NCBI GenBank assembly: GCA_943357175.1
Contig: CALRGE010000004.1
Coordinates: 36,420-100,419, forward strand
Length of the DNA: 64,000 nt
Origin: Candidatus Peribacteria bacterium
GTDB lineage: Bacteria; Patescibacteriota; Gracilibacteria; UBA1369; 2-02-FULL-48-14
Reading direction: 5' to 3'
In this document: in pieces, positions 13,425 through 54,113 of the stretch
How positions within the stretch are numbered: position 1 is the first letter of the stretch
Layout: each line of letters begins with the position of its first letter
Notes under the pieces: generated by a model
The model's database searches: none
Seen by the model: only the letters and a program-made list of their open reading frames with translations
What the model was told of the DNA's origin: nothing
Position numbers and translations under genes: made by a program

Positions 13425-13507
13425 AGTAATTTTTATAAAATACGTTGGGATTTTGATTCCCAAATTGGAATACGACAAATAAGGATTCTATTTAACAGAT
13501 CAATTTT

Positions 13508-22033: not shown

Positions 22034-22353
22034 TCTGAAACGGTTTTAAATCCACCCTTGCCTGCTTTTTCCTCGATCAGTTTTTTATCTTCGAGTGTTA
22101 CTCTGAATCTAATTACTTCTTCTTGTTTTTCTTTATATTCTTTTTCGGCGAGAATTAGATTTGGAAGGTCAATTAAAAGGTTTGCAATGTCTCCATTTAG
22201 AAATGATTGAGCAATATTTGCAGATTCACAGTCAAAATATGTTTCATTTGTATTTATCTTTTTCAAGGAATAAGAATATTTTTTATTATTTAAGGTTACA
22301 AAGTGATTTAAGGAGTTTTTTTGCATATTTTTTATAGAAGATTTTACAGTCAT
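22006..22353 (-). CDS. ribbon-helix-helix antitoxin partner of HicA (HicB-role)
   Basis: C-terminus IRFRVTLEDKKLIEEKAGKGGFKTVSDYLRVVAL is a CopG/RHH motif. Immediately downstream of hicA and overlapping it. Start could be 22353 or 22326. Confidence 0.55.
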   Translation of the reverse strand: MTVKSSIKNMQKNSLNHFVTLNNKKYSYSLKKINTNETYFDCESANIAQSFLNGDIANLLIDLPNLILAEKEYKEKQEEVIRFRVTLEDKKLIEEKAGKGGFKTVSDYLRVVALK

Positions 22354-22531
22354 TATTATGAATAGGAATTATTAGATCTTTTGAAAGCAAGTTGTGTTTG
22401 AATTTTTTATGACTACCCTTTGCTTCGATTTTTTGAAATCCATTTTCCAGAAGCAAAAATTCAATTTCTCTATATTTTAAGCTTTGTGGATAAGCAAAGA
22501 ATTTATTTAAAAGTTTCTCTTTACCTGTCAT
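22286..22531 (-). CDS. hicA: HicA-family mRNA interferase toxin
   Basis: LLLENGFQKIEAKGSHKKFKHN...IIPIHNND matches the HicA consensus (GF.....GSH..f.h.....vP.H). 81 aa. Confidence 0.7.
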   Translation of the reverse strand: MTGKEKLLNKFFAYPQSLKYREIEFLLLENGFQKIEAKGSHKKFKHNLLSKDLIIPIHNNDCKIFYKKYAKKLLKSLCNLK

Positions 22532-22566
22532 ATTGTAGCTATATTATATATTATTAGGGCTACAAT
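22532..22566 (-). promoter_or_regulatory. inverted repeat with embedded TATAAT directly upstream of hicA (candidate autoregulated promoter/operator)
   Basis: ATTGTAGC (22532-22539) and GCTACAAT (22559-22566) flank a 19-nt AT-rich spacer. On the minus strand TATAAT (22543-22548) lies 11 nt before the ATG. Confidence 0.35.
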
Positions 22567-22642
22567 TACAATAGCCAAAGATTTTTTACATCAAAGGTCA
22601 AACAAATTCAAAAAATATTTCGCATTTCCAGATTAAAATTGC

Positions 22643-22664
22643 GTTGTCAGAGTGTTGACAACAG
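22643..22664. repeat. hairpin motif GTTGTCAGAG-N4-GACAACAG, copy 2
   Basis: 18 of 22 positions identical to 13510-13531 with identical spacing. Lies 112 nt upstream of the hicA start in the divergent intergenic region. Confidence 0.6.
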
Positions 22665-22688
22665 TAGATAGAAATTAAGTGAACGGGC

Positions 22689-22717
22689 TTGCTGAGGCCA
22701 TGCTAATCTGGTAGATT
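22689..22717 (+). promoter_or_regulatory. sigma70-like promoter, leaderless geometry
   Basis: TTGCTG (22689-22694), 17 nt, TAGATT (22712-22717), 7 nt, ATG (22725). No SD. Confidence 0.35.
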
Positions 22718-22724
22718 CTTGGCT

Positions 22725-26042: not shown

Positions 26043-27115
26043 AAAAATTATTCTATATCTTGCCTGAATATTCAAAGAATACCTCAAGTCACTTCAGGTA
26101 TAATATTGAACTTTTAGAGGAAGTTGCAAAAGAAATGGAGGTTTTTTTATTTATTGAAAAAGGCGAAAAATTTAAATCTAATATACAGAAAATTTACATT
26201 GGAAAATTCAAGTTTTTGCCATTTAGAATACTTGAACGGTTTTTTATTTTTTCTTTTGCTAGACTTTCCGGCTATAGAAATTTCTATTCACATTATGCAT
26301 ATTTGAGCGCGATGATTGCAGGTTTTATTTGTAGAATTAGTTTTGGCAAGCTGTATTTTTGGCATTGTGAGATGCGAAAGGAATATGAAGTTGCATGCAA
26401 CTTATGCAATTTACCTGCAAAGTTAAGTAAAGATTGGCCCTTTAGAATTGTTTTGAAGATTTGTTCTAGGCTAGTAACCTGCTCTGAACAAATGAAGAAA
26501 TATTATTCAAAAGAATTTGCAGTTCGATCTGGAAAAATTTCTGTCATGCCGAACTGGGTTAATACTGAAAAATTGAGGATTGAAAAGAGAAAAGCTGGAA
26601 ATACTATTTTATTTTTACATTGGCTTTCAGAAAGGAAGGGTACACGAATTTTACCTGAAATATTTTCTGAAATTTCGAGTAAAATGAAAGACGTAAAATT
26701 TATTGTTGTAGGTGAAGGTCCTGATTTTCAATTTCTGAAGGATGAATTTAAAAAGAGAGAATTAAATGTTGAAATGCCCGGAGCAGTTGCAAATAAAGAC
26801 ATTTCTTCATACTTTAATCGTGCTGATGTATTTATAAATCCTTCTAGAGAAGAAGAGTTCGGTAGGGTAATAATTGAGGCAATGGCTGCAGGTCTACCTG
26901 TAGTCTCAACAAAAACTTTAGGGGCGGAGGCCATTTTAAGTCCGAAGCAGAAAAAATTTAGTTTTAATTATGATAAACCGCAAGAAGGTGCGAGAAAATG
27001 TATCGAGATTTTAAATTCACCACAGATTTTTGAGGATGTGAAAAAAGATGGCCTTGAAAGGGTGAAGCTTTTTAGTAAAGAACGGGTACTAAAGCAGTTT
27101 ATTGCTTTATTTTAA
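26039..27115 (+). CDS. GT4-family glycosyltransferase
   Basis: PSREEEFGRVIIEAMAAGLPVVSTKTLG. 4-nt overlap with the upstream gene. Confidence 0.7.
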   Translation: MKKLFYILPEYSKNTSSHFRYNIELLEEVAKEMEVFLFIEKGEKFKSNIQKIYIGKFKFLPFRILERFFIFSFARLSGYRNFYSHYAYLSAMIAGFICRISFGKLYFWHCEMRKEYEVACNLCNLPAKLSKDWPFRIVLKICSRLVTCSEQMKKYYSKEFAVRSGKISVMPNWVNTEKLRIEKRKAGNTILFLHWLSERKGTRILPEIFSEISSKMKDVKFIVVGEGPDFQFLKDEFKKRELNVEMPGAVANKDISSYFNRADVFINPSREEEFGRVIIEAMAAGLPVVSTKTLGAEAILSPKQKKFSFNYDKPQEGARKCIEILNSPQIFEDVKKDGLERVKLFSKERVLKQFIALF

Positions 27116-27512
27116 ATACCAAAAATTTACTACCAAAGAAGTTCCAGAAAAGCACTACGACTACTGCTGAAAGCTTGCCAATTATATCGTGTTCTTGGCC
27201 AAAATAAGTAACGAAAAGATACAACAGTAATTCTGTTATCGCCAAGCCTACAAGTTGTATGCCAATAAATTTACCGTACTCAAGCTTCTTCTTTTCATGA
27301 ACACTTTGAAAAGTAAAATTTCTATTTAGATAGTAGCTATTCGCTGTGGAAATGATAAAGGCAAAAATATTTGCAGTGAGATAAAATACATTTAAGAATC
27401 TTGTAAAGAAATAATAAGTAAGTGTATCAATTGCAGTATTGATAACACCAACAATACAAAATTTTATAAATTGTCTAAAGCTGAGTGGAATCTTTTCCCA
27501 ATGCTGTTTCAT
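27099..27512 (-). CDS. GtrA-family small membrane protein (putative polyprenyl-P-sugar translocation)
   Basis: FIKFCIVGVINTAIDTLTYYFF, four TM helices, 137 aa, C-terminal FFGSKFLVF. Confidence 0.8.
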   Translation of the reverse strand: MKQHWEKIPLSFRQFIKFCIVGVINTAIDTLTYYFFTRFLNVFYLTANIFAFIISTANSYYLNRNFTFQSVHEKKKLEYGKFIGIQLVGLAITELLLYLFVTYFGQEHDIIGKLSAVVVVLFWNFFGSKFLVFKIKQ

Positions 27513-27557
27513 GTTGCCGATTATACATATATAATCGGCCTGATTCTATATAAGATT

Positions 27558-28190
27558 ATGCCAAACAGAAGAATTGAATGGGTGCTACAAAAAGGCTTAG
27601 GAAAGCGAATTCTTGATATTGGTTTCGTTGGAGAAGAAGAAAAAGATGCAGATTTGCATAGGTTGCTTCGTGCAAAGTATCCGGATTCTTTCATGGCAGG
27701 AATAGATACAAATGAAGAATTGTTAAAAAAATATAATTTTCCAAATTCAACAGTTGGATCATTCCTAGAAATGCCATATGAGAATGAATCTTTTGATACT
27801 GTTATTCTACTTGAAGTAATTGAACATGTTCTAGATTCTGTGAGAGGTTTTGCTGAAATTGCTAGAGTATTAGAAAAGGGTGGTAAATTTATCATTACAA
27901 CGCCCTGCTGTTATGGTTATTTACATTGGCTTAAACATTGGATGTTTTCAGGTGAGGCACATGCTAGAAGCAATTACAGGAGTTTTCTTGGGAATGATGA
28001 CCATAAAATGTTTTGGGAACCACTCTCACTCTGCAATATTTTGGCTATGAATAATTTGAAAGTTACAGAGATGACAACGAGAAACTTGGCCCTGCCATAT
28101 ATTCCTCAAGCTTTTAAAAATCCTCCTTTGCATTTTTGGCCGTTTACAAAAATGGGAACTTACATTTGCATTGTTGCAGAAAAACAATGA
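27558..28190 (+). CDS. class I SAM-dependent methyltransferase
   Basis: ILDIGFVGEE (motif I), FDTVILLEVIEHV, LEKGGKFIITTP (Methyltransf_11 pattern). Start at the ATG at 27558 avoids overlapping the gtrA start. Confidence 0.7.
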   Translation: MPNRRIEWVLQKGLGKRILDIGFVGEEEKDADLHRLLRAKYPDSFMAGIDTNEELLKKYNFPNSTVGSFLEMPYENESFDTVILLEVIEHVLDSVRGFAEIARVLEKGGKFIITTPCCYGYLHWLKHWMFSGEAHARSNYRSFLGNDDHKMFWEPLSLCNILAMNNLKVTEMTTRNLALPYIPQAFKNPPLHFWPFTKMGTYICIVAEKQ

Positions 28191-29266
28191 AAATTCTTTA
28201 TTTAAGCAATAATAGATTTCCAACTGAAAAGGCACATGGCCTGCAAATTGCGAAAATGTGTGAAGCGTTTATTGACCAAGGGACTGAGGTTTTACTAATT
28301 CTGCCAAATCGGTTACAGCCAAGTGAAATTAGTACGGCTAAAGAATTTTATGGATTAAAAAAAGATATTAAAGTTAAGCAAATCTGGAATATAGATTTAC
28401 TGTTAAATAATGTTGTTCCAAGAACTTTTGCATATTTTTTACAAAGTTTTACTTTTGCAATTTCATTTATAATAAGACGTTGGAAATATAAAAAATATGT
28501 TATTTACTCGAGAACTTTTTTGCCATTAATCGGGTATAGAGGTAAGTGGTTTTTTGAAGCGCATACTTTTCCAAAAACTTTTATTGGTCAATTGATGCAG
28601 AGAATTTTTCTAAGAAATGCAAGCGGTCTGGTTTGCATTAGCCAAGCTTTAGCAAAAAAATTTGGTCAAATTTATAGTGGTGAGATTTTGATTGCACACG
28701 ATGGTGTTGATATTGATTTATTTAGTAATTTTAAGAAGACAAGTGGTCATAAAAATGTTCTTTATACCGGTTCACCTTATAAAGAAAAAGGTGTTTTGAC
28801 ACTGGCTAAAGCTTGTGAAGATCTTAAGGATGTAAATTGTATTTTTTTGGGTGGCAATAAAAATGAACCTGAGTTTAAGCAGCTACAAAAAATTGCGAAA
28901 AACTCTATGGTGATACCTTATGTTAAACATTCTGATGTTCCTAAATATATTGCCAATGCTGATCTTTTGGTGATTCCAAATAGCGCAAAAGATAAGGCAT
29001 TTTCCGAAGATACTTCTCCATTAAAATTATTTGAATATATGGCCAGTGGCAAGAAAATCCTTGCAAGTGATGTGCCTGCTTTAAAAGCAATTTTAACTGA
29101 AAAAATGGCGTGGTTTTTTAAAGCTGATGATGTGAAGGATTTACGTAAAAAAATAATTGAAGCCTTGAATTCAAAGGAAGAAAAGGGAAAGTTCGCTGCA
29201 CAAGTAGCTAAAAAGTACTCATGGACTGAGCGGGCAATAGAAATTCTTGCCTTTTTAGATATCTAA
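28187..29266 (+). CDS. GT4-family glycosyltransferase
   Basis: MKILYLSNNRFPTEKAHGLQIAKM and TSPLKLFEYMASGKKILASDVPA. ATGA overlap with the methyltransferase stop. Confidence 0.7.
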   Translation: MKILYLSNNRFPTEKAHGLQIAKMCEAFIDQGTEVLLILPNRLQPSEISTAKEFYGLKKDIKVKQIWNIDLLLNNVVPRTFAYFLQSFTFAISFIIRRWKYKKYVIYSRTFLPLIGYRGKWFFEAHTFPKTFIGQLMQRIFLRNASGLVCISQALAKKFGQIYSGEILIAHDGVDIDLFSNFKKTSGHKNVLYTGSPYKEKGVLTLAKACEDLKDVNCIFLGGNKNEPEFKQLQKIAKNSMVIPYVKHSDVPKYIANADLLVIPNSAKDKAFSEDTSPLKLFEYMASGKKILASDVPALKAILTEKMAWFFKADDVKDLRKKIIEALNSKEEKGKFAAQVAKKYSWTERAIEILAFLDI

Positions 29267-31127
29267 TAATCATCTTTGGCTCACCGTTATGATCTTTTAT
29301 CAAGAAGTCATCTTCTTTTAATTTATCGTCTGAGTATTTAAGGATTTCAATTGCATCTTTGGAATAATCAAATTTTGATGAGCTTATATATTCAAAGTCG
29401 TCTTTATAAGCACTGCCAAGATAATGAGCGTCTACTTCACGAAAAATGCCTAAGTACCATCTAAATTGATGTTTATATGACAATAAAAACGAGTCCTCAA
29501 TAACAAGTAGCTGATCTTTATCTTGCAAAAATTTTTGTAAAACTGTGAAGCCGTCGTCTTGCAAGAAGCCCCATGATGCTAGTGATATATGTTGTTTAAA
29601 TGCTTGATACGAATATATATTACTACGCCCATATTCACCTTCAAGGATTGTATCGTCCATCGGAATTACAAAAATGTGGGTATTTAATGCGTAAATAAAT
29701 GCCCAGACTGTATAAATACAAGACCATAAAATGACTGACACTTTAAGCATTATATTTTTCCAATTGATCTGCCCTAATACAAACAATGATAAGAGTAAAA
29801 ATGGTATTGTGAGATATTCTGCGTAATATGCTCTGTATCCGTTAAAAGAGAAGAAAAGAATCGATATAAGTATGATTGAAATAAAAAAATAGATTGGTAT
29901 AATTCTATCTTTTAAATTTTTTCTGAAAATAAAAACGAGCGGTATTGATGCGAATAAGTTGATAGCAATTAATAGTGACCATTGATCTGCCAATAATTGC
30001 AAGAAACCTGCTAAAGTTTTGAAGAATGAGGGTGTAATTTCGCTATAAAGACCGACATTTCCCATAATTGAATTTGCATTGAATCCAAGTAAATTAAGAA
30101 GCTTAGCTGTTGGCACATCTGTGTAACCTGTTAGTTGATATGCACATATATTGAATACGATGACCGGCAAGAAAAAGAATAATGTAACAAGTGATGTTTG
30201 GAATAAATTTTTGTATCCTTTTTTATTAAATAGCCAGAAAAATATAAATGGTGGAATCAAGAAAATTGCGCTTAATTTTACTAAGATTGTTGATGCTGCC
30301 AAAAGTCCAATGAGAAAGATATCGAGCTTGCTCGGACTGTTTTTTTTCTGCAAAAATCTTATAAAAAAATATGAAAATAAGAGTACAAAAAATGTAAAAA
30401 CACTACCATCTTGAGGTATCATTAATCGTGAGCCGAAAATTGCGTATGTATTTATTGAGAGAAGTAATAAGCCGAAAGCTGTTATAGTTTTTGATAACTT
30501 TAAACTTTTCGCAAAAAGCAAGAATAGTGCTAATTCAAGTAATCCAAAAACAATCATTGGGCTACGAAGAATATATTCAGGCAAATATGCATATTGAAAT
30601 GGTGTCACTAAGCTATAAATAATAAAAGATACGAAATATCCGAGTGGAGAATGATCTGTTCCGGAAAGAAAAAATGCATCTCTACCGACCAAAATTCCAC
30701 TGAATAGATGATAAGAATAAAGTGAGAGTTCTTGTTCATCACCATTGATATTTTGGTTTGCGTTTCCGTAAATGCGAAGAAAAATTCCTAGTGCAAAAAT
30801 TGATAGTATTAAATAAAGCCATTTTTTTTCTGGAGCTTCGAATTTTCCGTGAAATGATTCTTTTTTCCTTGAGATGTAGTAGAGACAAGAACAAAGTAGA
30901 ATGTATATCGGGAAAAGTGTATCGATATGAACCTGATATGGATTTGGAGAGTAAAAATATTCGATTATATTATTTGACAGACCGACCGGATATCCGAGTA
31001 GAAAACTAATACCTATGCTGAGTATGATTGCCTCCCAAAAATTGAGTTTTTCATTTTTACCCCAAATTGATTTTAGGAAAAAATAGCCCGGAAAAAAGAT
31101 TGCAAAAGGCGCAAATAGAATTGTCAT
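29208..31127 (-). CDS. GT-C fold polyprenyl-phosphate-sugar-dependent glycosyltransferase (ArnT/PMT, GT39/GT83-like) with C-terminal soluble domain
   Basis: More than 12 TM segments. The first extracytoplasmic loop carries NGDEQE (the D/E motif of GT-C enzymes). About 170-aa hydrophilic C-terminus. Operonic with a Dpm1/ArnC-like GT2. Confidence 0.6.
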   Translation of the reverse strand: MTILFAPFAIFFPGYFFLKSIWGKNEKLNFWEAIILSIGISFLLGYPVGLSNNIIEYFYSPNPYQVHIDTLFPIYILLCSCLYYISRKKESFHGKFEAPEKKWLYLILSIFALGIFLRIYGNANQNINGDEQELSLYSYHLFSGILVGRDAFFLSGTDHSPLGYFVSFIIYSLVTPFQYAYLPEYILRSPMIVFGLLELALFLLFAKSLKLSKTITAFGLLLLSINTYAIFGSRLMIPQDGSVFTFFVLLFSYFFIRFLQKKNSPSKLDIFLIGLLAASTILVKLSAIFLIPPFIFFWLFNKKGYKNLFQTSLVTLFFFLPVIVFNICAYQLTGYTDVPTAKLLNLLGFNANSIMGNVGLYSEITPSFFKTLAGFLQLLADQWSLLIAINLFASIPLVFIFRKNLKDRIIPIYFFISIILISILFFSFNGYRAYYAEYLTIPFLLLSLFVLGQINWKNIMLKVSVILWSCIYTVWAFIYALNTHIFVIPMDDTILEGEYGRSNIYSYQAFKQHISLASWGFLQDDGFTVLQKFLQDKDQLLVIEDSFLLSYKHQFRWYLGIFREVDAHYLGSAYKDDFEYISSSKFDYSKDAIEILKYSDDKLKEDDFLIKDHNGEPKMIIRYLKRQEFLLPAQSMSTF

Positions 31128-32218
31128 ACTTTAAAGAATTCTTTGATTTTTAAGATAACGTAATCTTGCTGTTCATTTGTTAGTGAATAGCTGGATGGCA
31201 AAGAAAGTCCCGTCTCGTATGCATTTAGCGAATTAGGAAAATCACCTAATACTATGTTTGCCTTTGGTGACTGATAACATGGCTGAAGATGTAGTGGGTA
31301 AAAAAATCTTCTAGAACCAATTCCATTTTCCTTCAAAAATATTTCAAGCTTTTCGGCACTCGGAACTTCTATATTGGTGAACCAGTAAACAGGCGAGATA
31401 TGATCTGGATTTTGATAAAATTTGACGGTGTTTTTTAATTCAGCCAAATACTTATTATTTATTTCTTCTTTTCTTGCAAGAATTTTGGGTAGTTTTTTTA
31501 GTTGAGAAATACCAACCGCTGCATGAAGATCCGAAAAACTAAAATTAAATCCTATGCTTTCATGTATGAAAATTCCTTTCTTTTCTCGCCCATGATTTTT
31601 CATTTTATAAAGTTCTTTTGCAAGATTTTCATCCTCTGTAAGCATAACAGCGCCCTCCGCACTCGTAACAATTTTATTTGCGTAAAAAGAAATCATTCCG
31701 ATATCACCAATTGTTCCTACATGCTTATTTTTATATGTTGTTCCAATACTTTCGGCTGCGTCTTCAATTATGTATATTTTATGCTCTTTTGCAATTGCCA
31801 TTATTTCATCCATTTCTGCAGATTGCCCGTAAAGATGGACAGGAATTATGGCCTTGGTTTTTGAGCTAATTTTTGATCGTAAGCTTGCTGGAGATATTTG
31901 CCAGCCACTTTCATTAATATCGCAAATAACAGGTGTGGCACCGGCTAAAATTACTGCATTTGCCGTTGCTATGAAAGTAAGATCCGGGACTATCACTTCA
32001 TCACCTGGGCCGATTCCGAGAACCATAAGCGAGGCCGCGAGGCCGAGCGTGCCATTCGCGTATGCAATCGCATATTTTGCACCTGTGATTTTTCTAAGCA
32101 TCTCTTCAAATTCCTTAGTTGCATCGTTTTCACTTATATAAGTGGAAGAAATTACTTTTCTTAATTCTTCCAATTCTGAGTCATCAATCCAAGGCTGAAT
32201 TTGAGGTATAAAATCCAT
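31124..32218 (-). CDS. DegT/DnrJ/EryC1-family sugar aminotransferase
   Basis: ANGTLGL, GDEVIVPDLTFIAT, IIEDAAESIG, SFYANKIVTSAEG (PLP lysine present). Confidence 0.85.
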   Translation of the reverse strand: MDFIPQIQPWIDDSELEELRKVISSTYISENDATKEFEEMLRKITGAKYAIAYANGTLGLAASLMVLGIGPGDEVIVPDLTFIATANAVILAGATPVICDINESGWQISPASLRSKISSKTKAIIPVHLYGQSAEMDEIMAIAKEHKIYIIEDAAESIGTTYKNKHVGTIGDIGMISFYANKIVTSAEGAVMLTEDENLAKELYKMKNHGREKKGIFIHESIGFNFSFSDLHAAVGISQLKKLPKILARKEEINNKYLAELKNTVKFYQNPDHISPVYWFTNIEVPSAEKLEIFLKENGIGSRRFFYPLHLQPCYQSPKANIVLGDFPNSLNAYETGLSLPSSYSLTNEQQDYVILKIKEFFKV

Positions 32219-32937
32219 TATTTTTTAATTAGTGATTTCCCTGAGAATAAAAGTTTGAGCCCCTCGATAGTGTAAATAAAAATATATTTAGCAAAATAAG
32301 TTTTACTAGATCCTGAGGCGCGCAATCCATATATTACAGGTATTTCTATACATGATTTTTCTAAAATTTGGGCAGCCAATAAGAATCTAAAATAGAACTC
32401 ACCATATCCGGTAAATATTTTCTTTGTATTCATTTTCTCTAGAATTGATTTTTTGAACATAACAAACCCACCAGTGTTATCTGTGGATTTCATCGAAAGA
32501 ATAAACGACAAATAGTAATTAAAAATCATGCTGCCAATATATCTTCCTCTTCCGCCATCCATGTTACCTCCCCATGTGTATCTTGAGCCTGTAACTATGT
32601 CATAAAATTTGGAAAATTCAAAAAATTGTTTGAGGTACTTTGGGTCATGGTTAAAATCCGTATCCATCAAAACTATATGAGTACCTGTAGACTCATTGAT
32701 TCCGCGAAGAATTGCAGTTGCTAAACCTTTTTCATTTTTCCGGATTATAACCTTAATATTCTTATTATTTTTGAATGATTCTTCAACTAATAATCCAGTT
32801 TGATCTGGTGAATTGTCATCTACTAAAATCACTTCATAATCAATTTTTTCCTTTTCTACAGTCCGTTGAATCTCACGAATAAATGTGACGATATGATCGT
32901 GCTCGTTATAGCTCGGTAGTACAAAGGAGACTTTCAT
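32218..32937 (-). CDS. GT2 polyprenyl-phosphate glycosyltransferase (Dpm1/ArnC/GtrB-like)
   Basis: VSFVLPSYNE, ILVDDNSPDQT, VLMDTDFNHDP (DxD). 239 aa with no TM tail. Confidence 0.8.
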   Translation of the reverse strand: MKVSFVLPSYNEHDHIVTFIREIQRTVEKEKIDYEVILVDDNSPDQTGLLVEESFKNNKNIKVIIRKNEKGLATAILRGINESTGTHIVLMDTDFNHDPKYLKQFFEFSKFYDIVTGSRYTWGGNMDGGRGRYIGSMIFNYYLSFILSMKSTDNTGGFVMFKKSILEKMNTKKIFTGYGEFYFRFLLAAQILEKSCIEIPVIYGLRASGSSKTYFAKYIFIYTIEGLKLLFSGKSLIKK

Positions 32938-33842
32938 TTTGAAATTACAGATAAATAATAATCCAGAGTTTCTTTAAGTGCTTTTTCTACTGATGTGAAC
33001 ATGAATCCTGGGAATAATTTTTTAAATTGAGAGGTATCAAGAGTTAAATCTTTTGAACGGTTAATTTCTTTTTTTTGATCTTCAACCTGAACATTTAGTT
33101 TTTTTGCTATGAATTCAGCAATTTCACCAACTTCATGCAAATCGCCACTTGCAATGTTTAGAATATCGAAGTTTTGCTTATCTTCAAGGCATAATCTAAC
33201 AATTCTTGCTAAATCTTTTGAGTATAAAAAATCTCTTGTGTGACTTCCATTGAGAATGCTTATCCGCTTTTCTAAAATCGCCTGTTTCATAATCTGAGGT
33301 ATCAAATTTGGCTTATCTTGCCAGTTTTGGTTTGGACCGAAACAGTTAGTTATCCTGAGTATCTTAACCGGAAGACCTTGTGACATATAAATCTTGCAGA
33401 TTTTTTCTGCTTCAATTTTTGAGTGGGCATAATTATCATCTTCGTGAGCTTTTTGATCGGAATCTTCTTTTAAAGGTCGCGCAGCATCGTCTGAATATGT
33501 TGTTGCTGAAGAGAAAAATAGGAATTTTTTGAGTGACATAAAAGAACTTGCAACCTTTAAAAGTTTTCCGGTTAACACAACATTTAATTCAATTGTTTTA
33601 TCTAAATCCGATGCAAGTTTTGGGCTAGCATACCCAGCTAAATGTATAACAAAGTCAAAATCCATATCTTTCAAGAGTTCCAAGGGCTCATCTTTGAAAG
33701 CATCAAAATGAATATTTTTTACGGCTATATTCTCATACGGATGCAATGATAGATTTGTGATTTCAAAACCTGCTTCTAGAAGTAATGGAACAATATTTCT
33801 CCCAAGAAATCCATTACCTCCAGTGATTAAAATTTTAGGCAT
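32934..33842 (-). CDS. extended SDR (NAD-dependent epimerase/dehydratase family); candidate reductase/epimerase following the ColD-like step
   Basis: ILITGGNGFLGRN Rossmann motif, SSATTY, YAHSKIEAEK (YxxxK). Confidence 0.75.
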   Translation of the reverse strand: MPKILITGGNGFLGRNIVPLLLEAGFEITNLSLHPYENIAVKNIHFDAFKDEPLELLKDMDFDFVIHLAGYASPKLASDLDKTIELNVVLTGKLLKVASSFMSLKKFLFFSSATTYSDDAARPLKEDSDQKAHEDDNYAHSKIEAEKICKIYMSQGLPVKILRITNCFGPNQNWQDKPNLIPQIMKQAILEKRISILNGSHTRDFLYSKDLARIVRLCLEDKQNFDILNIASGDLHEVGEIAEFIAKKLNVQVEDQKKEINRSKDLTLDTSQFKKLFPGFMFTSVEKALKETLDYYLSVISK

Positions 33843-35031
33843 TTTTTGAAAAATATTCTTTAAATGTCTCGATTATAAAGTTTATCTCAGCTTCACCGAT
33901 GCCTTTATGACAACCTATGTAAAATCCGTGTTTATTAACATAATCAGCATTTGGAAATTGTGCTGCTAGATCACCAAATAAGTCTAAATAATAAGGTTGG
34001 TTGATAAGTGGGACCATATATCTTGTCTCAATATTTCTTTCTTCTAAGAATATAATTAACGGATCGCGCGCAGCAGCATTTTTCAATACAATTGGATACA
34101 TCATAAAGGCATGTTCATAACCATCCGGAGTGCTTGGCAACTGTAAATATTTTTCTAGCTCATTTAAGCCATCTGTCATTTTTGCTGCATTTTTCTTGCG
34201 AGTTTCTATTACTTCATCTTTTCTCTCAATTTGAGCTAAACCAAGTGCCGCTTCCATCTCTGTTACTCGATAACTGTAACCCATTCTAATAAAACTGAAT
34301 CTGCGATCTACAATTTGAAAAAGTGATTCACTTGAGTTTGTATTTTTATCATCATCTATTTTCAGATAAATTGAGTCGCGTCCGTGATTTAAATAACTCT
34401 TCATCATAATCGCCAGCTCGTCGTCATTTGTAAGTGAAAGTCCGCCAACTCCTGTGACAATTAAATGCGCCATGTATGTTGAAAAACAAGCAATATCACC
34501 ACGAGAGCCGACTTTGTGACCTTGCGCAGAGACAAGCATTGTCTCACATGAATCCTCAAGAATTTTTAGATTATGTTTTTTGGCGATTTCTAAAATCGCA
34601 TCCATATCGCATGGAAGTCCAAAAAGATGAACAGGAATAATTGCTCGAGTTTTTGCTGTGATCACCGCTTCGATTTTTAATGGATCGATATTGTAAGTAA
34701 TAGGATCAATATCAACAAAAACGACCTTCATATTATTTTGCAAAACTATGTTCGATGTCGCAATAAAAGTTAATGCAGGGACAATCACTTCATCTCCATC
34801 TGACCAATTCCATTTTTCCTTCATTGCAGCTAGTGCAACCTGTAAAGAACTTGTTCCGCTATTACTTAGAACGGCGAATTTTCTATCGTGAGCTGCGGCA
34901 AATTTACCTTCGAATGCTTGAGAAAATTTTCCATAAGAAAGTCGACCGGAATCTAAAACTTCGTTCACATATTTCTTTTCTAAATCTGTTATGTCGGCGC
35001 AGCCAACGCCAATTTGAACCGGATATTTCAT
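33835..35031 (-). CDS. DegT-fold PMP-dependent 3-dehydratase candidate (ColD-like; His replaces the PLP lysine)
   Basis: DegT motifs SNSGTSSL, GDEVIVPALTFIAT, ILEDSCET. The Schiff-base position reads FSTYMAHLIVTGVGG, with His189 (codon 34465-34467) where aminotransferases have Lys. One nt downstream of gmd. Confidence 0.65.
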   Translation of the reverse strand: MKYPVQIGVGCADITDLEKKYVNEVLDSGRLSYGKFSQAFEGKFAAAHDRKFAVLSNSGTSSLQVALAAMKEKWNWSDGDEVIVPALTFIATSNIVLQNNMKVVFVDIDPITYNIDPLKIEAVITAKTRAIIPVHLFGLPCDMDAILEIAKKHNLKILEDSCETMLVSAQGHKVGSRGDIACFSTYMAHLIVTGVGGLSLTNDDELAIMMKSYLNHGRDSIYLKIDDDKNTNSSESLFQIVDRRFSFIRMGYSYRVTEMEAALGLAQIERKDEVIETRKKNAAKMTDGLNELEKYLQLPSTPDGYEHAFMMYPIVLKNAAARDPLIIFLEERNIETRYMVPLINQPYYLDLFGDLAAQFPNADYVNKHGFYIGCHKGIGEAEINFIIETFKEYFSKNA

Positions 35032-35032
35032 A

Positions 35033-35992
35033 TCAAGATAGAAGTTCTATATCTGACTTAACCATCATTCTTACTAAATCACCGAAGTTGAATTCTGGAA
35101 CCCAGTTTAATTTTTTTCTTGCGTTACTTGCATCAGCAATAAGTATGTCTACTTCTGCTGGTCGAATAAAATCAGGGTTAATTTTTACATATGGAGCCCA
35201 ATCTGTGATTCCAATTTCAGCAAATGCAGCATCTAAAAATTCTTTAATACTGTGAGTTTGCCCCATTCCAATAACAAAATCTTCAGGCTCATTTTGTTGA
35301 AGCATCAAGTGCATTACCTTCACATAGTCACCTGCAAAACCCCAATCGCGCTTTGCATCAAGATTTCCTAATTGAATTTCTTTTGAGAGGCCGAGTTTGA
35401 TTTTTGCCACACCCATGCTGATTTTTCTTGTAACAAATTCTTCACCACGTCTTGGTGATTCATGGTTAAACAAAATTCCGCTGCAAATATACATTCCATA
35501 ACTTTCTCGATAATTCATTGCTGCAAAATGTGCAAAAACTTTGGCGAATCCATATGGGCTTCGTGGATGGAATGGTGTCATCTCTGTTTGTGGAGTTTCT
35601 CGAACTTTTCCAAACATTTCACTTGAAGAAGCCTGGTAAATTCTCGCGTCTTTTTTTGTCAGTCTCGCAGCTTCAAAAAGATTAAGCGCTCCAAGTCCAG
35701 TTACAGAACTGGTTAAAACCGGCATTGTGAAAGAACTGCCCACAAAAGATTGAGCCGCTAAGTTATAAATTTCATCTGGTTTGCATTTTTCTATAGCCGT
35801 GATCAAAGAAGACATATCTTGCAGATCACCATAGACAATTTCTACTTTGTCTAGCAAATGAGACACTCTTCCCAGGTTATTTCCGCTTGATCTGCGCACT
35901 AAGCCATATACTTTATAGCCGAGTGTAAGCAAGTGTTCTGCCAAATAAGACCCATCCTGACCTGTTATTCCTGTAATTAAAGCTGTTTTCAT
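35033..35992 (-). CDS. gmd: GDP-mannose 4,6-dehydratase
   Basis: ALITGITGQDGSYLAEHLL, YNLAAQSFV, SSSEMFG, SPYGFAKVFAH, LFNHESPRRGEEFVTRKI are canonical GMD motifs. Confidence 0.9.
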   Translation of the reverse strand: MKTALITGITGQDGSYLAEHLLTLGYKVYGLVRRSSGNNLGRVSHLLDKVEIVYGDLQDMSSLITAIEKCKPDEIYNLAAQSFVGSSFTMPVLTSSVTGLGALNLFEAARLTKKDARIYQASSSEMFGKVRETPQTEMTPFHPRSPYGFAKVFAHFAAMNYRESYGMYICSGILFNHESPRRGEEFVTRKISMGVAKIKLGLSKEIQLGNLDAKRDWGFAGDYVKVMHLMLQQNEPEDFVIGMGQTHSIKEFLDAAFAEIGITDWAPYVKINPDFIRPAEVDILIADASNARKKLNWVPEFNFGDLVRMMVKSDIELLS

Positions 35993-37142: not shown

Positions 37143-38042
37143 TTACAAACATTTGCGTAAACCCTCGTCCAAGGTGACTTTTGGATTGAAACCAAGCAAT
37201 TTTCTGGCTTTTGAGATATCTGCGCAGGAGTGAACAATGTCGCCTACTCGAGGTGATTTGAATTCCGGATCGATTTCAGAATTGTGAATTTTGGCGAGAG
37301 TCGAGATCAAATCTAGAATTGAAATTGATTCACCACGGCCGATGTTCATCACTTCGCCTGAAACTGAAGAATTCATTGCTAACAAATTTGCATTTACAAC
37401 ATCATCAACGAAAATGAAATCGCGGGTTTGTGAGCCATCTCCATAGACAGAAATTTTTTCGCCTTTTTTTATTTTGTCTGAGAAAAGTGCGATGACTGCT
37501 GAGTATGGAGAGGATGGATCTTGGCCCGGACCAAAAACATTGAAATAACGGAAAATAACAGATTGGATTCCGTAAAGATGACTGTAAGTTTTTATCAAAT
37601 ATTCACTTTCAAGTTTTGCGTATGCATATGGAGAAAGAGTTTGCGGGGTCATGTCTTCCGTATTTTTTACTGAGCCTTGATCTCCGTAAACTGCGGAGGT
37701 ACTGGAATAGACAATTTTTTTGATTTTTAATTCTCGCATGGCTTCGAGTATTTGCAATGTGCCGAGAGCATTAACTTCAAGTGTGTATTTTGGATCGGCC
37801 ATTGATTTTGGAACTGAAACTAGAGCGGCCAAATGGAAAACTCCATCGCAATTTTGCATTGATTCGCGAAGCAAATTTTTATCTGTAATTGAGCCTTGAA
37901 AAAACTCTGCAGCTGCAGGGACATTTTCAATTTTTGAATTCGAAAGATCGTCAATTATCGCAACTTTGTGTCCTTGCGCGAGTAAAGCTCGTGCGATGTG
38001 CGAACCAATGAATCCTGCTCCGCCTGTGACTAAATATTTCAT
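37143..38042 (-). CDS. extended SDR, UDP-hexose 4-epimerase-like
   Basis: [41 protein letters not shown]. Confidence 0.75.
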   Translation of the reverse strand: MKYLVTGGAGFIGSHIARALLAQGHKVAIIDDLSNSKIENVPAAAEFFQGSITDKNLLRESMQNCDGVFHLAALVSVPKSMADPKYTLEVNALGTLQILEAMRELKIKKIVYSSTSAVYGDQGSVKNTEDMTPQTLSPYAYAKLESEYLIKTYSHLYGIQSVIFRYFNVFGPGQDPSSPYSAVIALFSDKIKKGEKISVYGDGSQTRDFIFVDDVVNANLLAMNSSVSGEVMNIGRGESISILDLISTLAKIHNSEIDPEFKSPRVGDIVHSCADISKARKLLGFNPKVTLDEGLRKCL

Positions 38043-38962
38043 TTTTTGTACCAGTTAACTAATTTTTCGATTCCTTGTTCAAGAGTTGTTTGAGGATTAT
38101 AGCCAAGAAGTTTTTGGGCTTTTGTGATATCTGCGTATGTCATTTCTACGTCGCCCGGCTGCATTGGTAGTTCTTCAATTTTCGCGCTTTTACCAAGATT
38201 TTTTTCGATAGTAGAAATCAAAACTCGCAATTCTTCAGGTTTATTGTTGCCAAGATTTATAATTTCAAAATTGAAAGGATGATCAATGGCCGATACAATT
38301 CCTGAAACTATATCATCAATAAAAGTATAATCACGCATAGAAGTTCCGTCGCCAAAACGCTTAATTGTTTCGCCTGCATCAATTGCTTTTGTAAACATTA
38401 ATGGTGCCATATCAGGCCGGCCACTTGGACCGTAAACAGTGAAAAATCTTAGGCAAGTTATCTGCAAACCGTACATTTTTGAATATGCATAAGCCAAACT
38501 TTCTCCTGCTCTTTTTGTTGCCGCATAAGGGCTAATCGGGTTTTCTGTTTCATCTGTTTCTGAGAAAGGTGTCTTTTTTTGATTACCGTAAACTGAAGAA
38601 CTTGAGGCTGAAACGATTCTGCCTACTCCATGTTTTCTGCAAGCATCAAGCAAAATATTTGTTCCAAGCACGTTCACATTATGATAAAGCACAGGATCTG
38701 CAATTGAGGCGCGCACGCCGGCTCGTGCGGCGAGATGTAAAAGTACATCAGGTTGAAGTTCAGCGAAGATTTTATCTATTGCGGCTTCGTCGCAAATATC
38801 GACACGAAAGACATTTAAATTTTCTGCATTTTTCTCTTTTTGTTCAACCTCATAGTAATCATTAAAATTGTCAATACCGTAGACAGTATCGCCACGCGCG
38901 AGAAGTGCCTTCGCACTATGCGATCCAATAAAACCTGCCGCGCCTGTGACTAAAATTTTCAT
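38039..38962 (-). CDS. extended SDR, UDP-glucuronate 4-epimerase-like
   Basis: MKILVTGAAGFIGSH, GIDNFNDYYEVEQKEKN (typical of UDP-GlcA 4-epimerases), SSSSVYG, SPYAATKRAGE. The tracked ORF allows an earlier start at 38980. Confidence 0.65.
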   Translation of the reverse strand: MKILVTGAAGFIGSHSAKALLARGDTVYGIDNFNDYYEVEQKEKNAENLNVFRVDICDEAAIDKIFAELQPDVLLHLAARAGVRASIADPVLYHNVNVLGTNILLDACRKHGVGRIVSASSSSVYGNQKKTPFSETDETENPISPYAATKRAGESLAYAYSKMYGLQITCLRFFTVYGPSGRPDMAPLMFTKAIDAGETIKRFGDGTSMRDYTFIDDIVSGIVSAIDHPFNFEIINLGNNKPEELRVLISTIEKNLGKSAKIEELPMQPGDVEMTYADITKAQKLLGYNPQTTLEQGIEKLVNWYKK

Positions 38963-38989
38963 GCTCGTGTAAGTTAGCATGAAACTGAT

Positions 38990-41950: not shown

Positions 41951-41999
41951 ACCCCCGGCGGGGGTTTTGCAGGTTAGAAAGTGTTCCCGGGAACACTTT
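41951..41999. repeat. bipartite hairpin motif, copy 2
   Basis: ACCCCCG-G-CGGGGGT at 41951-41965, GTTTTGCAG at 41964-41972, AGAAAGTG at 41976-41983, and a 22-nt perfect palindrome AAAGTGTTCCC/GGGAACACTTT at 41978-41999 that abuts the ugd stop codon. Confidence 0.6.
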
Positions 42000-43297
42000 T
42001 ATCTCCCCACGCTCACGTATTTAAACCCAAGTTTTTCCATTTCTGCTGGCTGGTAGATATTTCTTCCGTCGAATACTGATTTTCCTTTCATTGAACTTGC
42101 AATTCGAGTGAGGTCGATTGCACGGAATTCGTCCCATTCTGTGACAATTAAAAGAATATCTGCACCGGTGGCGGCATCGTAAGGTGAAGGAAGATATTCT
42201 ATATTAGTTGTACCAAGAATTTTTTTTGCATTTTCAGCTGCAACAGGATCAAAAACGCGTAGGCGGGCGCCGGATTTTAACAGTTCAGGAAGAATTTCAA
42301 GGGATGGAGCTTCACGCATGTCATCTGTTTTTGGTTTGAATGCAAGCCCCCAAACTGCAATTGTGAGGCCGACAAGATCAGGGAATTCTTTGCGGATTTT
42401 CTCTACGATTATTTTCTTCTGTATTTGATTAACATCATTCGCCGCTTTGATAATTTTGAATTCGTAACCTTTATCACGACCAGTTTGAATGAAGGCGTTT
42501 ACATCTTTTGGAAAGCAACTTCCCCCGTAACCAATTCCGGCGTGTAAAAAACGTGGACCGATTCTATCGTCAAGTCCCATTCCCTTCGCAACCATTGTTA
42601 CATCTCCACCGGCAGCTTCACAGAAATTTGCGATTTCGTTGATGAACGAAATTTTTGTGGCGAGGAATGCATTTGATGCATATTTGATAATTTCTGCTGA
42701 ATGAATATCTGTGAAGAGTAGAGGCCTGCCGGCTCGAACTAGTGGAGAATAGAGTTTTTCCATCGCCTCGCGGGCTTTGTCACTTTCTACTCCACAAACT
42801 ATTCTGTCTGGGTTCAAAAAGTCCTTAACTGCAGAGCCTTCACGAAGGAATTCAGGATTGTCTACTACATCAAAAGGGTGTGTGGTTTGTGAGGCGATTA
42901 TATCTTTCACTTCATTGCTAGTACCTACAGGAACTGTAGATTTATTAACAAAAACTTTGTATCCATTTAAATTTTGACCGACTGATTTTGCCACAGCTCG
43001 AACTGCAGAAAGATCTGCTCTGTCATCACCACCTTGAGGTGTACCAACGGCTGAGAAAATAATTTCACAAGCTTCAATTGCAGATTTTAAATCGGTAGAA
43101 AAATTTAAACGACCTTCTTTGTAATTTCTCAAAACAAGCTCTTCAAGCCCTGGTTCGTAAATTGGAATTTCACCTTTTTTTAATCTTTCAATTTTTGCAG
43201 CATCAATATCAATACAAATTACGTCATTGCCTAGCTCTGCGAAGCATGTGCCAGTAACTAATCCAACGTATCCGGTACCAACGACAGTTATTTTCAT
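41999..43297 (-). CDS. ugd: UDP-glucose 6-dehydrogenase
   Basis: MKITVVGTGYVGLVTG, NPEFLREG, GYGGSCFPKD (catalytic Cys), AFKPKTDDMREAP. Confidence 0.9.
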   Translation of the reverse strand: MKITVVGTGYVGLVTGTCFAELGNDVICIDIDAAKIERLKKGEIPIYEPGLEELVLRNYKEGRLNFSTDLKSAIEACEIIFSAVGTPQGGDDRADLSAVRAVAKSVGQNLNGYKVFVNKSTVPVGTSNEVKDIIASQTTHPFDVVDNPEFLREGSAVKDFLNPDRIVCGVESDKAREAMEKLYSPLVRAGRPLLFTDIHSAEIIKYASNAFLATKISFINEIANFCEAAGGDVTMVAKGMGLDDRIGPRFLHAGIGYGGSCFPKDVNAFIQTGRDKGYEFKIIKAANDVNQIQKKIIVEKIRKEFPDLVGLTIAVWGLAFKPKTDDMREAPSLEILPELLKSGARLRVFDPVAAENAKKILGTTNIEYLPSPYDAATGADILLIVTEWDEFRAIDLTRIASSMKGKSVFDGRNIYQPAEMEKLGFKYVSVGR

Positions 43298-44042: not shown

Positions 44043-44948
44043 ATGTCTAAAATTTTAGTTGCAGGCGGGGCGGGATTCATTGGAAGCCACTTAGTGGAAA
44101 GACTTTTAACTTTGGGGCATGAAGTTACGGCTGTAGATAATTTTGTAACTGGAAACTTAAAGAATCTTTCTCATATTGTTGGAAATTTGAAAGTTATTGA
44201 TCACGATATAACTATCCCTTTTGATGGAGAATTTGAAATTATTATAAATATGGCTTGCCCTGCTTCACCTGTCGATTATCAAAATATTCCGTTGGAGACA
44301 TTATGGGTTAGTGCGATGGGAACAAAAAATCTACTTGAAATTGCGCGAAAAAATAAAGCTAAGTTTTTGCATGCTTCAACTTCGGAAGTTTATGGTGATC
44401 CGCTTGTTCATCCTCAAAAAGAAGATTATTGGGGAAATGTTAATCCAAATGGACCACGGAGTTGCTATGACGAAGGAAAAAGATTTGCTGAAAGTTTGAT
44501 TGTAAATTATCAAAATGTTCATGGTGTAAATGCTAGAATTTTTAGAATTTTCAATACATATGGACCTCACATGCGAGCCAATGACGGAAGAGTTATTCCA
44601 AATTTTGTTAGCCAAGCAATGGCTGGTGAGCCAATAACAATTTATGGTGACGGCAAGCAAACTCGCTCCTTCTGCTATGTTGATGATTTAGTGGATGGGA
44701 TTATTAGCGTCATGAATGCTGAGAAATTTTCTGGACCTGTAAATTTAGGAAATCCAAAAGAAACGACTATTTTAGAATTGGCTGAGATGATTTTACGGTT
44801 GATGGACTCGAAAAGTGAAATTGTTTTTAAAGATTTACCGCAAGACGATCCAAAAATTAGGCAGCCGGATATAAGTAAGGCTCGCAAAGAATTGAACTTT
44901 GAGCCTAAAGTTGATTTAGAAAGTGGCCTAAGAAGAACATTTATTTAA
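44043..44948 (+). CDS. uxs: UDP-glucuronate decarboxylase (UDP-xylose synthase)
   Basis: [64 protein letters not shown] are UXS hallmarks. Confidence 0.85.
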
Positions 44949-53015: not shown

Positions 53016-53016
53016 G

Positions 53017-54009: not shown

Positions 54010-54018
54010 ATTGATTTG

Positions 54019-54046
54019 ATTTTACTCTTTAAAATTAAGATTGCAA
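54019..54046 (-). promoter_or_regulatory. sigma70-like promoter for the pseB operon, near-leaderless
   Basis: Minus strand: TTGCAA (54041-54046), 16 nt, TAAAAT (54019-54024), 9 nt, ATG (54009). Confidence 0.35.
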
Positions 54047-54078
54047 ATTAGCGAGCATTATCACATTATATTTAGAAC

Positions 54079-54107: not shown

Positions 54108-54113
54108 TGAGCT

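Follow-up and report, generated by a model that had tools for sequence, protein, structure and literature searches.

A Gmd-headed operon of Candidatus Peribacteria with an exchangeable GT2, aminotransferase and GT-C cassette, a predicted lipid-carrier system for surface glycosylation

Gene content of the operon

A stretch of 64,000 nucleotides from a Candidatus Peribacteria bacterium (assembly GCA_943357175.1, contig CALRGE010000004.1, positions 36,420 to 100,419), referred to below as the window, was analyzed for a candidate glycosylation operon. Six minus-strand open reading frames (ORFs) at 29208-35992 are packed head to tail, with a 1-nt gap followed by overlaps of 8, 4, 1 and 4 nt, exactly as an earlier sequence-only reading had described them. 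The first gene encodes a GDP-mannose 4,6-dehydratase (Gmd; 35033..35992, 319 aa). It is followed by a DegT-fold protein of the sugar 3-dehydratase type, here called D (33835..35031, 398 aa), an extended short-chain dehydrogenase/reductase (SDR; 32934..33842, 302 aa), a family 2 glycosyltransferase of the polyprenyl-phosphate type represented by DPMS, DPM1, ArnC and GtrB (GT2b; 32218..32937, 239 aa), a DegT sugar aminotransferase resembling perosamine synthases and ArnB (31124..32218, 364 aa) and a membrane glycosyltransferase with the GT-C fold (29208..31127, 639 aa). All six domain assignments of the sequence-only reading were upheld when profile searches, alignments and a fold model of the GT-C protein were applied. 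Since at least nine independent related contigs show this gene order, the arrangement is not due to chance.

Gmd scored 427.5 bits against TIGR01472 (equivalog cut-off 415) and aligned over its full length with PF16363 (420.6 bits). Wherever a related contig extends to the upstream end of the locus, Gmd is the first gene. With homology at the equivalog level, it would supply GDP-4-keto-6-deoxy-D-mannose.

D (PF01041, 325.7 bits) had been described as a DegT protein without the pyridoxal phosphate lysine, and the alignments placed a histidine at that position. The His in FSTYMAHLIVTG aligns with the catalytic Lys (Lys186) of the Caulobacter perosamine synthase in FSFFGNKIITTG, and the same His (in 'YMAH') aligns with the catalytic His of E1 in 'SFYPAHHITMG', the 'AH' being as in E1. 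This residue is invariant in five orthologues and in 15 of 15 sampled relatives (~60% identity), all 15 of which are without Fe-S cysteines. D also has an E1-like insertion, in which the E1 Fe-S stretch GRDCYCAPGCDNTC aligns to the Cys-free GRDSIYLKIDDDKN; the E1 cysteine motif 'CYCAPGCDNTC' is replaced by 'SIYLKIDDDKN' and the CxC..C..C motif is gone. Profile searches of the operon found no E3-like reductase. Sugar 3-dehydratases are defined by the replacement of Lys with His, and among them ColD has no Fe-S cluster (PMC8987622). D is probably a 3-dehydratase in the condition of ColD, a subtype that has no cluster and regenerates its pyridoxamine phosphate (PMP) with glutamate. Its scores against solved relatives (207 bits for perosamine synthase, 198.6 for E1 and 150.8 for ColD, 2gms) assign it to a clade separate from the characterized ColD, and the ColD of E. 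coli is, by this comparison, not its orthologue.

The D clade comprises more than 6000 proteins at E <1e-40, many of them ~60% identical, from the Candidate Phyla Radiation (CPR), DPANN and other lineages. Their database labels (relatives P0025-P0133) usually read 'aminotransferase', 'perosamine synthetase' or 'dTDP-4-amino-4,6-dideoxygalactose transaminase'. From the conserved His, these labels are probably a systematic misannotation, and we flag this large clade as one of probable 3-dehydratases filed under aminotransferase names. D lies directly downstream of Gmd in six Peribacteria loci, including the window. It is also next to Gmd in locus L012, from another CPR lineage, where the order is Gmd, D, a methyltransferase, SDR and a second GT2 paralogue (GT2a, see below) with no aminotransferase, and in L013, a 1.7-Mb non-CPR contig, where D stands beside Gmd and a Fcl/ColC-like SDR in a Wzx/Wzy cluster. 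The context of D in L012 and L013 supports a GDP-sugar substrate.

The SDR (PF01370, 136 bits) conserves GxxGxxG, Ser and YxxxK, and its PDB and NCBIfam matches were weak and mixed (4-epimerases, UXS, RMD-like and Fcl). The sequence-only reading had considered a colitose-like product. The SDR scored 49 bits against the Fcl model NF047922, for which the cut-off is 500, and its motif 'FSSATTYS' has no Cys; the SDR312 of L013, by contrast, has 'GTICAYP...NLYGPRDNF'. Ser-x-Cys and His are the acid/base residues of 3,5-epimerization in Fcl and ColC, as in GMER. An identity as ColC or Fcl was ruled out by the missing Cys and His residues and the score far under the cut-off, so colitose is not the expected product. 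SDR orthologues in L005 (83% identical) and L012 (37%) sit in Gmd-D-SDR-GT2a sets without an aminotransferase. Because a 4-keto sugar needs reduction before it can serve as a donor, these sets point to a 4-reductase, and the most likely role predicted for the SDR is that of a GDP-4-keto-(3,)6-(di)deoxyhexose 4-reductase. The SDR may instead act as a GalE-like epimerase; an epimerase-type role has precedent in three-component glycosylation systems (PMC11127046).

GT2b (PF00535, 99.9 bits) matched best, among solved structures, the P. furiosus DPMS 5mlz (94.8 bits, residues 1-223), followed by ArnC 9hwj (57 bits) and GtrB 5ekp (52.7 bits), in agreement with the polyprenyl-phosphate type that had been predicted for it. 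Its metal-binding DxD motif (DTD), common to DPMS, ArnC and GtrB, lies in 'MDTDFNHDP', which aligns with 'MDADLQHPP', and its C-terminal RxxGxSK motif 'LRASGSSK' aligns with 'IRARGESK' and 'EREFGESK'. The best NCBIfam matches were PgfS (70 bits, cut-off 500) and ArnC (67 bits, cut-off 529), and AglJ, Dol-P-hexose transferase and PpgS were also matched. As every named equivalog cut-off was missed, GT2b is placed by superfamily type and given no equivalog name. No transmembrane (TM) segment was predicted, and in this it resembles the TM-less DPM1/PpgS class.

A possible membrane partner is encoded 1.7 kb from the operon, where a GtrA-family gene had been reported and was recovered (27099..27512, minus strand, 137 aa; PF04138 95.9 bits, cut-off 26.1). 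This protein has three strong hydrophobic segments. In the PDB it matched the TM domain of DPMS 5mlz (E 0.004) and nothing else, so GT2b and GtrA together look like a split DPMS. The gene holds the same position in all eight related loci with that region resolved. We infer from homology and from linkage to GtrA and GT-C that GT2b would transfer a sugar to polyprenyl phosphate, with GtrA as a putative flippase, as a membrane partner for the TM-less enzyme, or as both.

The aminotransferase (PF01041, 350.7 bits) keeps its catalytic Lys, in a motif ('SFYANK') that is invariant in six orthologues. The 639-aa protein encoded by the last gene has ~12-13 predicted TM segments and a soluble, extracytoplasmic C-terminal domain of ~150 aa. 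No Pfam family was above threshold, and a sub-threshold N-terminal TM match to DUF1616 (19.6 bits) was rejected. No solved structure was matched by sequence, whether the query was the single protein or a 13-member profile, and only the fold search was productive. An AlphaFold2 (AF2) model built from a 13-sequence alignment had a mean predicted local distance difference test score (pLDDT) of 75 and a predicted TM-score (pTM) of 0.79. Its top 30 Foldseek matches were all GT-C enzymes (PglB at E 4.7e-4, STT3, Pmt4, AftA, DPY19, ALG3, AftB, Pmt1/2 and Emb), with probability 1.0 for most and 0.90 for the lowest, and transporters appeared only at <0.1. The GT-C identity proposed earlier for this protein is thereby supported at the level of a modelled fold. 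Pfam searches found PMT_2 in 3 of 13 family members (best 6.7e-11) and PMT in 3 of 13, with neither above the gathering score in the window protein. An invariant acidic loop, 'QNIN[GQTx]DEQ[EQ]LSL' ('INGDEQEL'), with D130 and E131, follows helix 101-120 and is likely the catalytic acidic motif.

Only 13 homologues of the GT-C protein were found among 5.8 billion clustered proteins, and the genome matches were metagenome-assembled genomes of 'Candidatus Peribacteria' or Patescibacteria. The protein founds a small, divergent family restricted to Peribacteria.

An alternative without a lipid carrier would make the GT2 an ordinary Leloir transferase for glycan extension and would give the multi-TM protein the role of polymerase, ligase or transporter in the surrounding polysaccharide cluster. 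Two facts would suit such a reading: the operon is set in a large glycan island (GT4 glycosyltransferases, a Wzx-type flippase and a KpsS-like gene), and no solved GT-C was matched by the GT-C protein at the sequence level. However, the closest relatives of the GT2 are all polyprenyl-P transferases, GtrA is conserved alongside, the significant fold matches are all GT-C enzymes with no Wzy, ligase or transporter, and PMT and PMT_2 are each found in three family members. We consider this explanation very improbable and favor a lipid-carrier three-component system for surface glycosylation as the likely function of the locus.

Related loci and the exchange of a cassette

Ten related loci were compared, and the position of D was resolved in nine distinct Peribacteria loci. 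They contain two GT2 paralogues of ~30% identity: GT2b, the type found in the window, is always directly followed by the aminotransferase and then GT-C, and GT2a stands directly after the SDR. Four loci (L014, L003, L008 and L006) have Gmd, D, SDR, GT2a, GT2b, aminotransferase and GT-C. The window has the same set without GT2a. Locus L015, whose GT-C is the closest (70% identical), L001/L002 and L007 lack both D and GT2a and keep Gmd, SDR, GT2b, aminotransferase and GT-C. An AsnB gene, missing from all of these, is present in L005/L010, which have Gmd, D, SDR, GT2a and a GT-C (45% identical) and neither GT2b nor aminotransferase. In L096, the positions of Gmd, D, SDR and GT2a are beyond the contig edge; a GT2, typed by Pfam only and not as GT2a or GT2b, is directly upstream of DegT and GT-C, and there is no AsnB. 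Finally, the P0010 locus has GT-C alone among GT4s, with no Gmd, D, SDR, GT2a, GT2b, aminotransferase or AsnB.

Gmd and SDR are constant across the resolved Peribacteria loci. GT2b and the aminotransferase co-vary in 9/9 resolved loci (together in eight, both absent in L005), and L096 would be a tenth co-occurrence if its Pfam-typed GT2 is counted. D and GT2a are concordant in 8/9 loci (both in five, neither in three) and the window is the sole exception; tblastn found neither GT2a nor a second GT-C elsewhere in its 64 kb.

The sequence-only reading had treated the six genes as one pathway. In such a linear route, Gmd, D and the aminotransferase would successively produce GDP-4-amino-3,4,6-trideoxyhexose, GT2b would load it and GT-C transfer it, and the SDR would contribute a side activity. 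The translational coupling of the six genes in the window fits this proposal, as does the aminotransferase, which is perosamine-synthase-like and belongs with enzymes acting at C4 of GDP-4-keto sugars. In addition, D remains intact in the window, under purifying selection, despite the absence of GT2a. Decay of D to a pseudogene after the loss of GT2a was ruled out by its intact ORF, its retained His and a dN/dS of 0.067 against L005. Nevertheless, D is absent from three of the nine loci (L015, L001 and L007) in which the GT2b-aminotransferase-GT-C series stays, and it co-varies with GT2a rather than with GT2b. Universal retention of the SDR argues against a side activity, and the Gmd-D-SDR block of the window is ~88% nucleotide-identical to that of L005, where the cassette it serves has GT2a and no aminotransferase. 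We therefore regard the linear route as unlikely. D is a dispensable member of the set.

The D-less loci also bear on a second proposal, in which GT2b loads a neutral deoxyhexose made by Gmd (with or without D) and the SDR, such as GDP-D-rhamnose, 6-deoxytalose or a 3,6-dideoxyhexose, and the aminotransferase acts on another nucleotide sugar or on the lipid-linked sugar. Gmd, SDR and GT2b are contiguous in L015, L001 and L007, the SDR is present next to Gmd in every related locus, and SDR enzymes have precedent within three-component systems (PMC11127046). On the other hand, the aminotransferase-free Gmd-D-SDR sets (L005 and L012) have GT2a and not GT2b, and the GT2b/aminotransferase pair is kept in very distant loci that have no Gmd or homologue of the 302-aa SDR. 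This proposal appears improbable, more so than the linear route.

When L005/L010 were compared with the window using blastn, the flanks were 88-91% identical up to 32932 and from 29293, and nothing aligned between these positions. The breakpoint at 32932 is at the SDR stop and GT2 start, and the one at 29293 falls in the 3'-terminal part of the GT-C gene, where this gene overlaps a convergent GT4 gene. Between the breakpoints (29293..32932) the window has GT2b-aminotransferase-GT-C, and L005 carries GT2a-AsnB-GT-C in its place, the two GT-C proteins sharing 45% amino acid identity. dS is saturated at 3.2 for the GT-C pair and ranges from 0.34 to 0.77 for the flanking genes. Because the breakpoint is just inside the GT-C 3' end, the otherwise unrelated GT-C proteins P0001 and P0011 share a C-terminal tail ('LKRQE.LLPA.SM.TF'). 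GT2b-aminotransferase-GT-C is a self-contained exchangeable cassette bounded by recombination breakpoints, and its exchange suggests serotype-like variation of the surface. GtrA is 96% identical to its L005 copy despite the different cassettes, and so would serve either of them. The AsnB of L005:8220-10049 and L010:8070-9899 is a 609-aa glutamine-hydrolyzing amidotransferase (TIGR01536, 470 bits, above the cut-off), and its place in the aminotransferase slot may mean that nitrogen is added there by another chemistry.

JGI metagenomes scanned with a GT2b profile yielded GT2b-like genes of 38-47% identity on contigs of 25-64% GC. In seven of these distant loci a DegT gene that keeps the Lys is adjacent or nearby, and large multi-TM proteins stand alongside in most. 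In L016:5301-8714, GT-C (PF03901/PMT_2), DegT and GT2 genes overlap as a trio between housekeeping flanks (GC 0.47), and a similar trio of GT-C (PMT_2), DegT and GT2 is present in L025:4743-8702 (GC 0.34); in both, the DegT keeps the Lys and the GT2 is TM-less. The occurrence of these trios in unrelated contigs argues that aminotransferase, GT2 and GT-C form an old and mobile unit, by homology formally the same trio as ArnB/ArnC/ArnT. The bare trios suggest a widespread uncharacterized Arn-like module.

A true Arn route was considered for the window itself. The aminotransferase would then make a UDP-4-amino-4-deoxy-pentose from UDP-glucuronate through Ugd and UXS- or ArnA-like SDRs, GT2b and GT-C would be ArnC and ArnT, and Gmd, D and SDR would feed cytoplasmic GT4s. 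Ugd (41999-43297) and several extended SDRs (37143-38980 and 44043-44948) are encoded beside the operon, with conservation in L005; ArnB is matched by the aminotransferase with 199 bits, and no Gmd accompanies the bare trios elsewhere. However, all neighboring SDRs are under the ArnA/UXS cut-offs, no ArnA formyltransferase or ArnD deformylase was above cut-off in the operon or its neighbors, and ArnT is absent from the fold matches. Gmd is linked to the operon wherever the upstream end is on the contig, and Ugd is not adjacent in most resolved loci. Lipid A synthesis is, moreover, not known from CPR bacteria. An Arn route is highly unlikely here. Of the Arn- or Gtr-style route proposed in the sequence-only reading, the three-component logic is supported and the Arn identity is not.

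A proposed two-branch model of sugar supply and lipid loading

The preferred explanation is a modular model in which Gmd feeds two branches. In the first, the aminotransferase would convert the 4-keto sugar to a GDP-4-amino-4,6-dideoxyhexose of the perosamine type, the parsimonious product given the loci that lack D. Given the product of D, it may yield the 3-deoxy form as well. In the second, D and the SDR would together produce a GDP-3,6-dideoxyhexose other than colitose. GT2b, acting at the membrane with GtrA, would load the aminotransferase-derived sugar onto polyprenyl phosphate, and GtrA or another flippase would expose the lipid-linked sugar outside the membrane, where GT-C would transfer it to an extracytoplasmic acceptor, possibly a glycopolymer, a glycolipid or a protein. 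GT2a appears to be the usual lipid-loading partner of the D/SDR branch in the relatives. In the window, which has no GT2a, the 3,6-dideoxy branch may feed the aminotransferase and GT2b, or a cytoplasmic GT4. As for the earlier proposal of a three-component logic fed from GDP-mannose, it is well supported in this general form; a 3-deoxy product as the sugar loaded by GT2b is not.

Several observations weigh against the model or parts of it. The aminotransferase scores are similar for 7b0m (235.6 bits), the perosamine synthetase 3bn1 (224.9) and ArnB 8sng (198.9), and a literature search on 7b0m found no paper. Since no Gmd is nearby in the bare trios of L016 and L025, the aminotransferase need not use a GDP-sugar, and the sugar and nucleotide specificities of this enzyme and of GT2b are predicted ones. 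For the SDR, the solved structures closest in sequence are 4-epimerases and UXS at only 60-75 bits, the best of them a 4-epimerase at 74.7 bits. The SDR is also kept where D and GT2a are absent, without an explained consumer there. The association of D with GT2a gave p ~0.05 in Fisher's exact test (calculated by hand), from counts that are small and phylogenetically non-independent. As for the GT-C protein, its TM-scores to known GT-Cs are 0.38-0.42 with a model of moderate quality. Residues 124-159, the loop taken as catalytic, were modelled at pLDDT <50, and three extra N-terminal helices precede D130 and E131, so that the equivalence of this loop to external loop 1 (EL1) is a presumed one. 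The C-terminal 150-aa domain, modelled separately with AF2 (pLDDT 75), gave Foldseek TM-scores <0.3 and, with no structural match, offers no clue to the acceptor. We put the probability of the two-branch model as described at roughly 60%.

A wider generalization is more tentative. It holds that a previously undescribed family of exchangeable cassettes, of a GT2, a nitrogen-adding enzyme and a GT-C, is placed on a constant block of Gmd, 3-dehydratase and reductase in Peribacteria, the wider CPR and DPANN, and other uncultured lineages. These cassettes would make polyprenyl-P-linked 4-amino-dideoxy, 4-amino-trideoxy or 3,6-dideoxy surface sugars from GDP-mannose through a new GT-C family and bring about serotype switching in episymbionts. 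We consider this possible, with the odds against it.

Surface glycans of CPR bacteria are essentially uncharacterized. The organisms are tiny, uncultured and probably episymbiotic, and thus surface glycans likely govern attachment to the host and escape from phages. The enzyme types described here are individually known and the logic is established, which limits the surprise. New, if the model is true, would be the modified sugars on the carrier (for example polyprenyl-P-perosamine and polyprenyl-P-3,6-dideoxyhexose as lipid-linked donors), an aminotransferase in the cassette outside Arn, the divergent GT-C and cassette exchange in CPR bacteria. The Gtr/Arn/DPM three-component paradigm would then extend to amino and dideoxy sugars derived from GDP-mannose, a new and very narrowly distributed GT-C family would be defined, and exchange of the GT2/aminotransferase/GT-C cassette would be a route to surface variation.

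The surrounding island and comparison with known systems

Next to GtrA, a class I S-adenosylmethionine methyltransferase (PF08241, PF13489) is encoded at 27558..28190 on the plus strand. It has 210-aa orthologues at every related locus, from which its start was taken, and it is 98% identical to the L005 copy. The GT4 (PF00534, PF13692) at 28187..29266, also on the plus strand, is convergent with the GT-C gene, overlaps it by 59 nt and is kept in all related loci. The mechanically called TTG starts of these two genes (27471 and 28136, respectively) are likely too far upstream, as the orthologues point to ATG codons at 27558 and 28187. A 124-aa ORF at 27521-27895 on the minus strand, antisense to the methyltransferase gene, is probably no gene. 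Promoter-like sites in the region 28.9-36.4 kb were fewer than in shuffles and terminator-like sites were uninformative. A tRNA scan of the window found no tRNA genes.

A very large glycan island surrounds the operon. Its part at 16.9-29.3 kb has GT4 genes, a FemAB-like gene and a deacetylase fusion, and its part at 37-45 kb has Ugd and several SDRs. The neighboring SDRs and Ugd were tried as an ArnA-like supply and rejected, as none reaches an informative cut-off. A nonulosonic-acid set of the pseudaminic or legionaminic type is found at 49226-55747 (PseB-like dehydratase, PseC-like aminotransferase, formyltransferase-like protein, PIG-L deacetylase, cytidylyltransferase, methyltransferase, NeuB and GNAT). 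The genes at 56644-63072 encode an ATP-grasp enzyme, a haloacid dehalogenase (HAD) family hydrolase, a GINT1_N-like protein, a Wzx-type flippase (59034-60497), a GT4 and a KpsS-like capsule protein; together they form another line of glycan assembly next to the operon.

Further away, a 1599-aa ORF at 7255-12054 (minus strand) adjoins FtsW and MurG. It has no Pfam match, is rich in Lys, Ala, Asp and Glu and has no cysteine, and so differs from the Cys-rich giant proteins reported for Peribacteria. A BRO-N protein, of a phage-associated family, is encoded at 12567-13478 (minus strand), and P0010, the solitary GT-C homologue, also has a BRO-N gene in its vicinity. Within the glycan cluster, at 22034-22718, small ORFs of the HicA-like and ribbon-helix-helix (NikA-like) types occupy a spot that varies between related loci, with HicA_toxin and NikA-like genes in L006 and an extra 360-aa gene in L005.

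No report that connects GT-C/polyprenyl systems with CPR bacteria turned up in a literature search. The first genomic description of Peribacteria mentions mevalonate-derived polyprenols and multiple genes named 'perosamine synthetase' or 'dolichol-phosphate mannosyltransferase' (PMC4736985). Three-component systems are marked by a GT-C with a lipid-monophosphate-linked donor and by auxiliary SDRs, and they show donor promiscuity and diversify as genes are gained and lost (PMC11127046).

The Arn system of Gram-negative bacteria (ArnB/ArnC/ArnT with ArnE/F), which modifies lipid A with L-Ara4N, shares with the operon a DegT aminotransferase, a GT2, an extracytoplasmic GT-C and a small membrane flippase, and the matches are 199 bits between the aminotransferase and ArnB and 57 bits between GT2b and ArnC. 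Unlike Arn, the operon has no ArnA or ArnD, GT2b is without the TM helices of ArnC, and ArnT is not retrieved with the GT-C. GtrA is the candidate flippase in place of the ArnE/F of the small multidrug resistance (SMR) type, the predicted supply is a GDP-sugar from Gmd instead of UDP-GlcA, and lipid A is not expected in a CPR host.

The GtrA/GtrB/Gtr(type) systems of O-antigen glucosylation and the CsbB/GtcA/YfhO-type systems of Gram-positive bacteria are similar in having a GtrA-family protein, a GtrB-like GT2 (52.7 bits to 5ekp) and a serotype-specific GT-C, which in these systems also is the fastest-evolving and exchangeable part (PMC11127046). They differ in that an aminotransferase is built into the cassette here and a Gmd/dehydratase/SDR block is upstream. 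Furthermore, GT2b is TM-less and the predicted sugar is not Glc or GlcNAc.

With the GDP-colitose pathway (Gmd, ColD and ColC) and the CDP-3,6-dideoxyhexose pathway (E1/E3), the operon has in common Gmd followed by a His-DegT protein without the Fe-S motif, as in ColD. D is nevertheless not a ColD orthologue by sequence, having the 'AH' of E1 and a cysteine-free insertion, and the SDR is without the ColC/Fcl residues. Moreover, in the relatives the product of the D branch appears to go to the polyprenyl-P transferase GT2a and not to a Leloir transferase.

The mycobacterial system of PpgS (Rv3631; NCBIfam NF058614), the GtrA-like Rv3632 and the GT-C Rv3779 places galactosamine on arabinogalactan. 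It likewise has a TM-less GT2 of ~230 aa, a separate GtrA-like protein and a GT-C, and it delivers an amino sugar to a wall polymer; the PpgS model matched GT2a with 60 bits and GT2b weakly. The amino group there comes from UDP-GalNAc followed by deacetylation, and no aminotransferase or GDP-sugar block is known to take part.

DPMS 5mlz and DPM1 with the PMT and ALG GT-Cs, together with the mycobacterial Ppm1, are alike in the GDP-sugar donor. DPMS is the closest solved relative of GT2b, and PMT and PMT_2 are found in members of the GT-C family. The predicted sugar is an amino or deoxy derivative of GDP-mannose here and mannose there, and the catalytic and TM parts are here separate genes, 5 kb apart on the same strand. 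A polyprenyl-P route fed by a GDP-sugar is classical in itself, since dolichyl phosphate mannose (Dol-P-Man) and polyprenyl phosphomannose (PPM) synthases use GDP-Man, and only the deoxy or amino modification would be unusual.

The GT136 systems of Citrobacter youngae O1/O2 (PMC11127046) differ from the operon by a phosphoribosyl pyrophosphate (PRPP)-dependent lipid-sugar synthase, a flippase of the multidrug and toxic compound extrusion (MATE) type and pentofuranoses as the sugars. They resemble it in an extracytoplasmic GT-C with an extra C-terminal domain and in an auxiliary SDR by which the sugar is diversified, and in these systems gene gain and loss alters the side chain.

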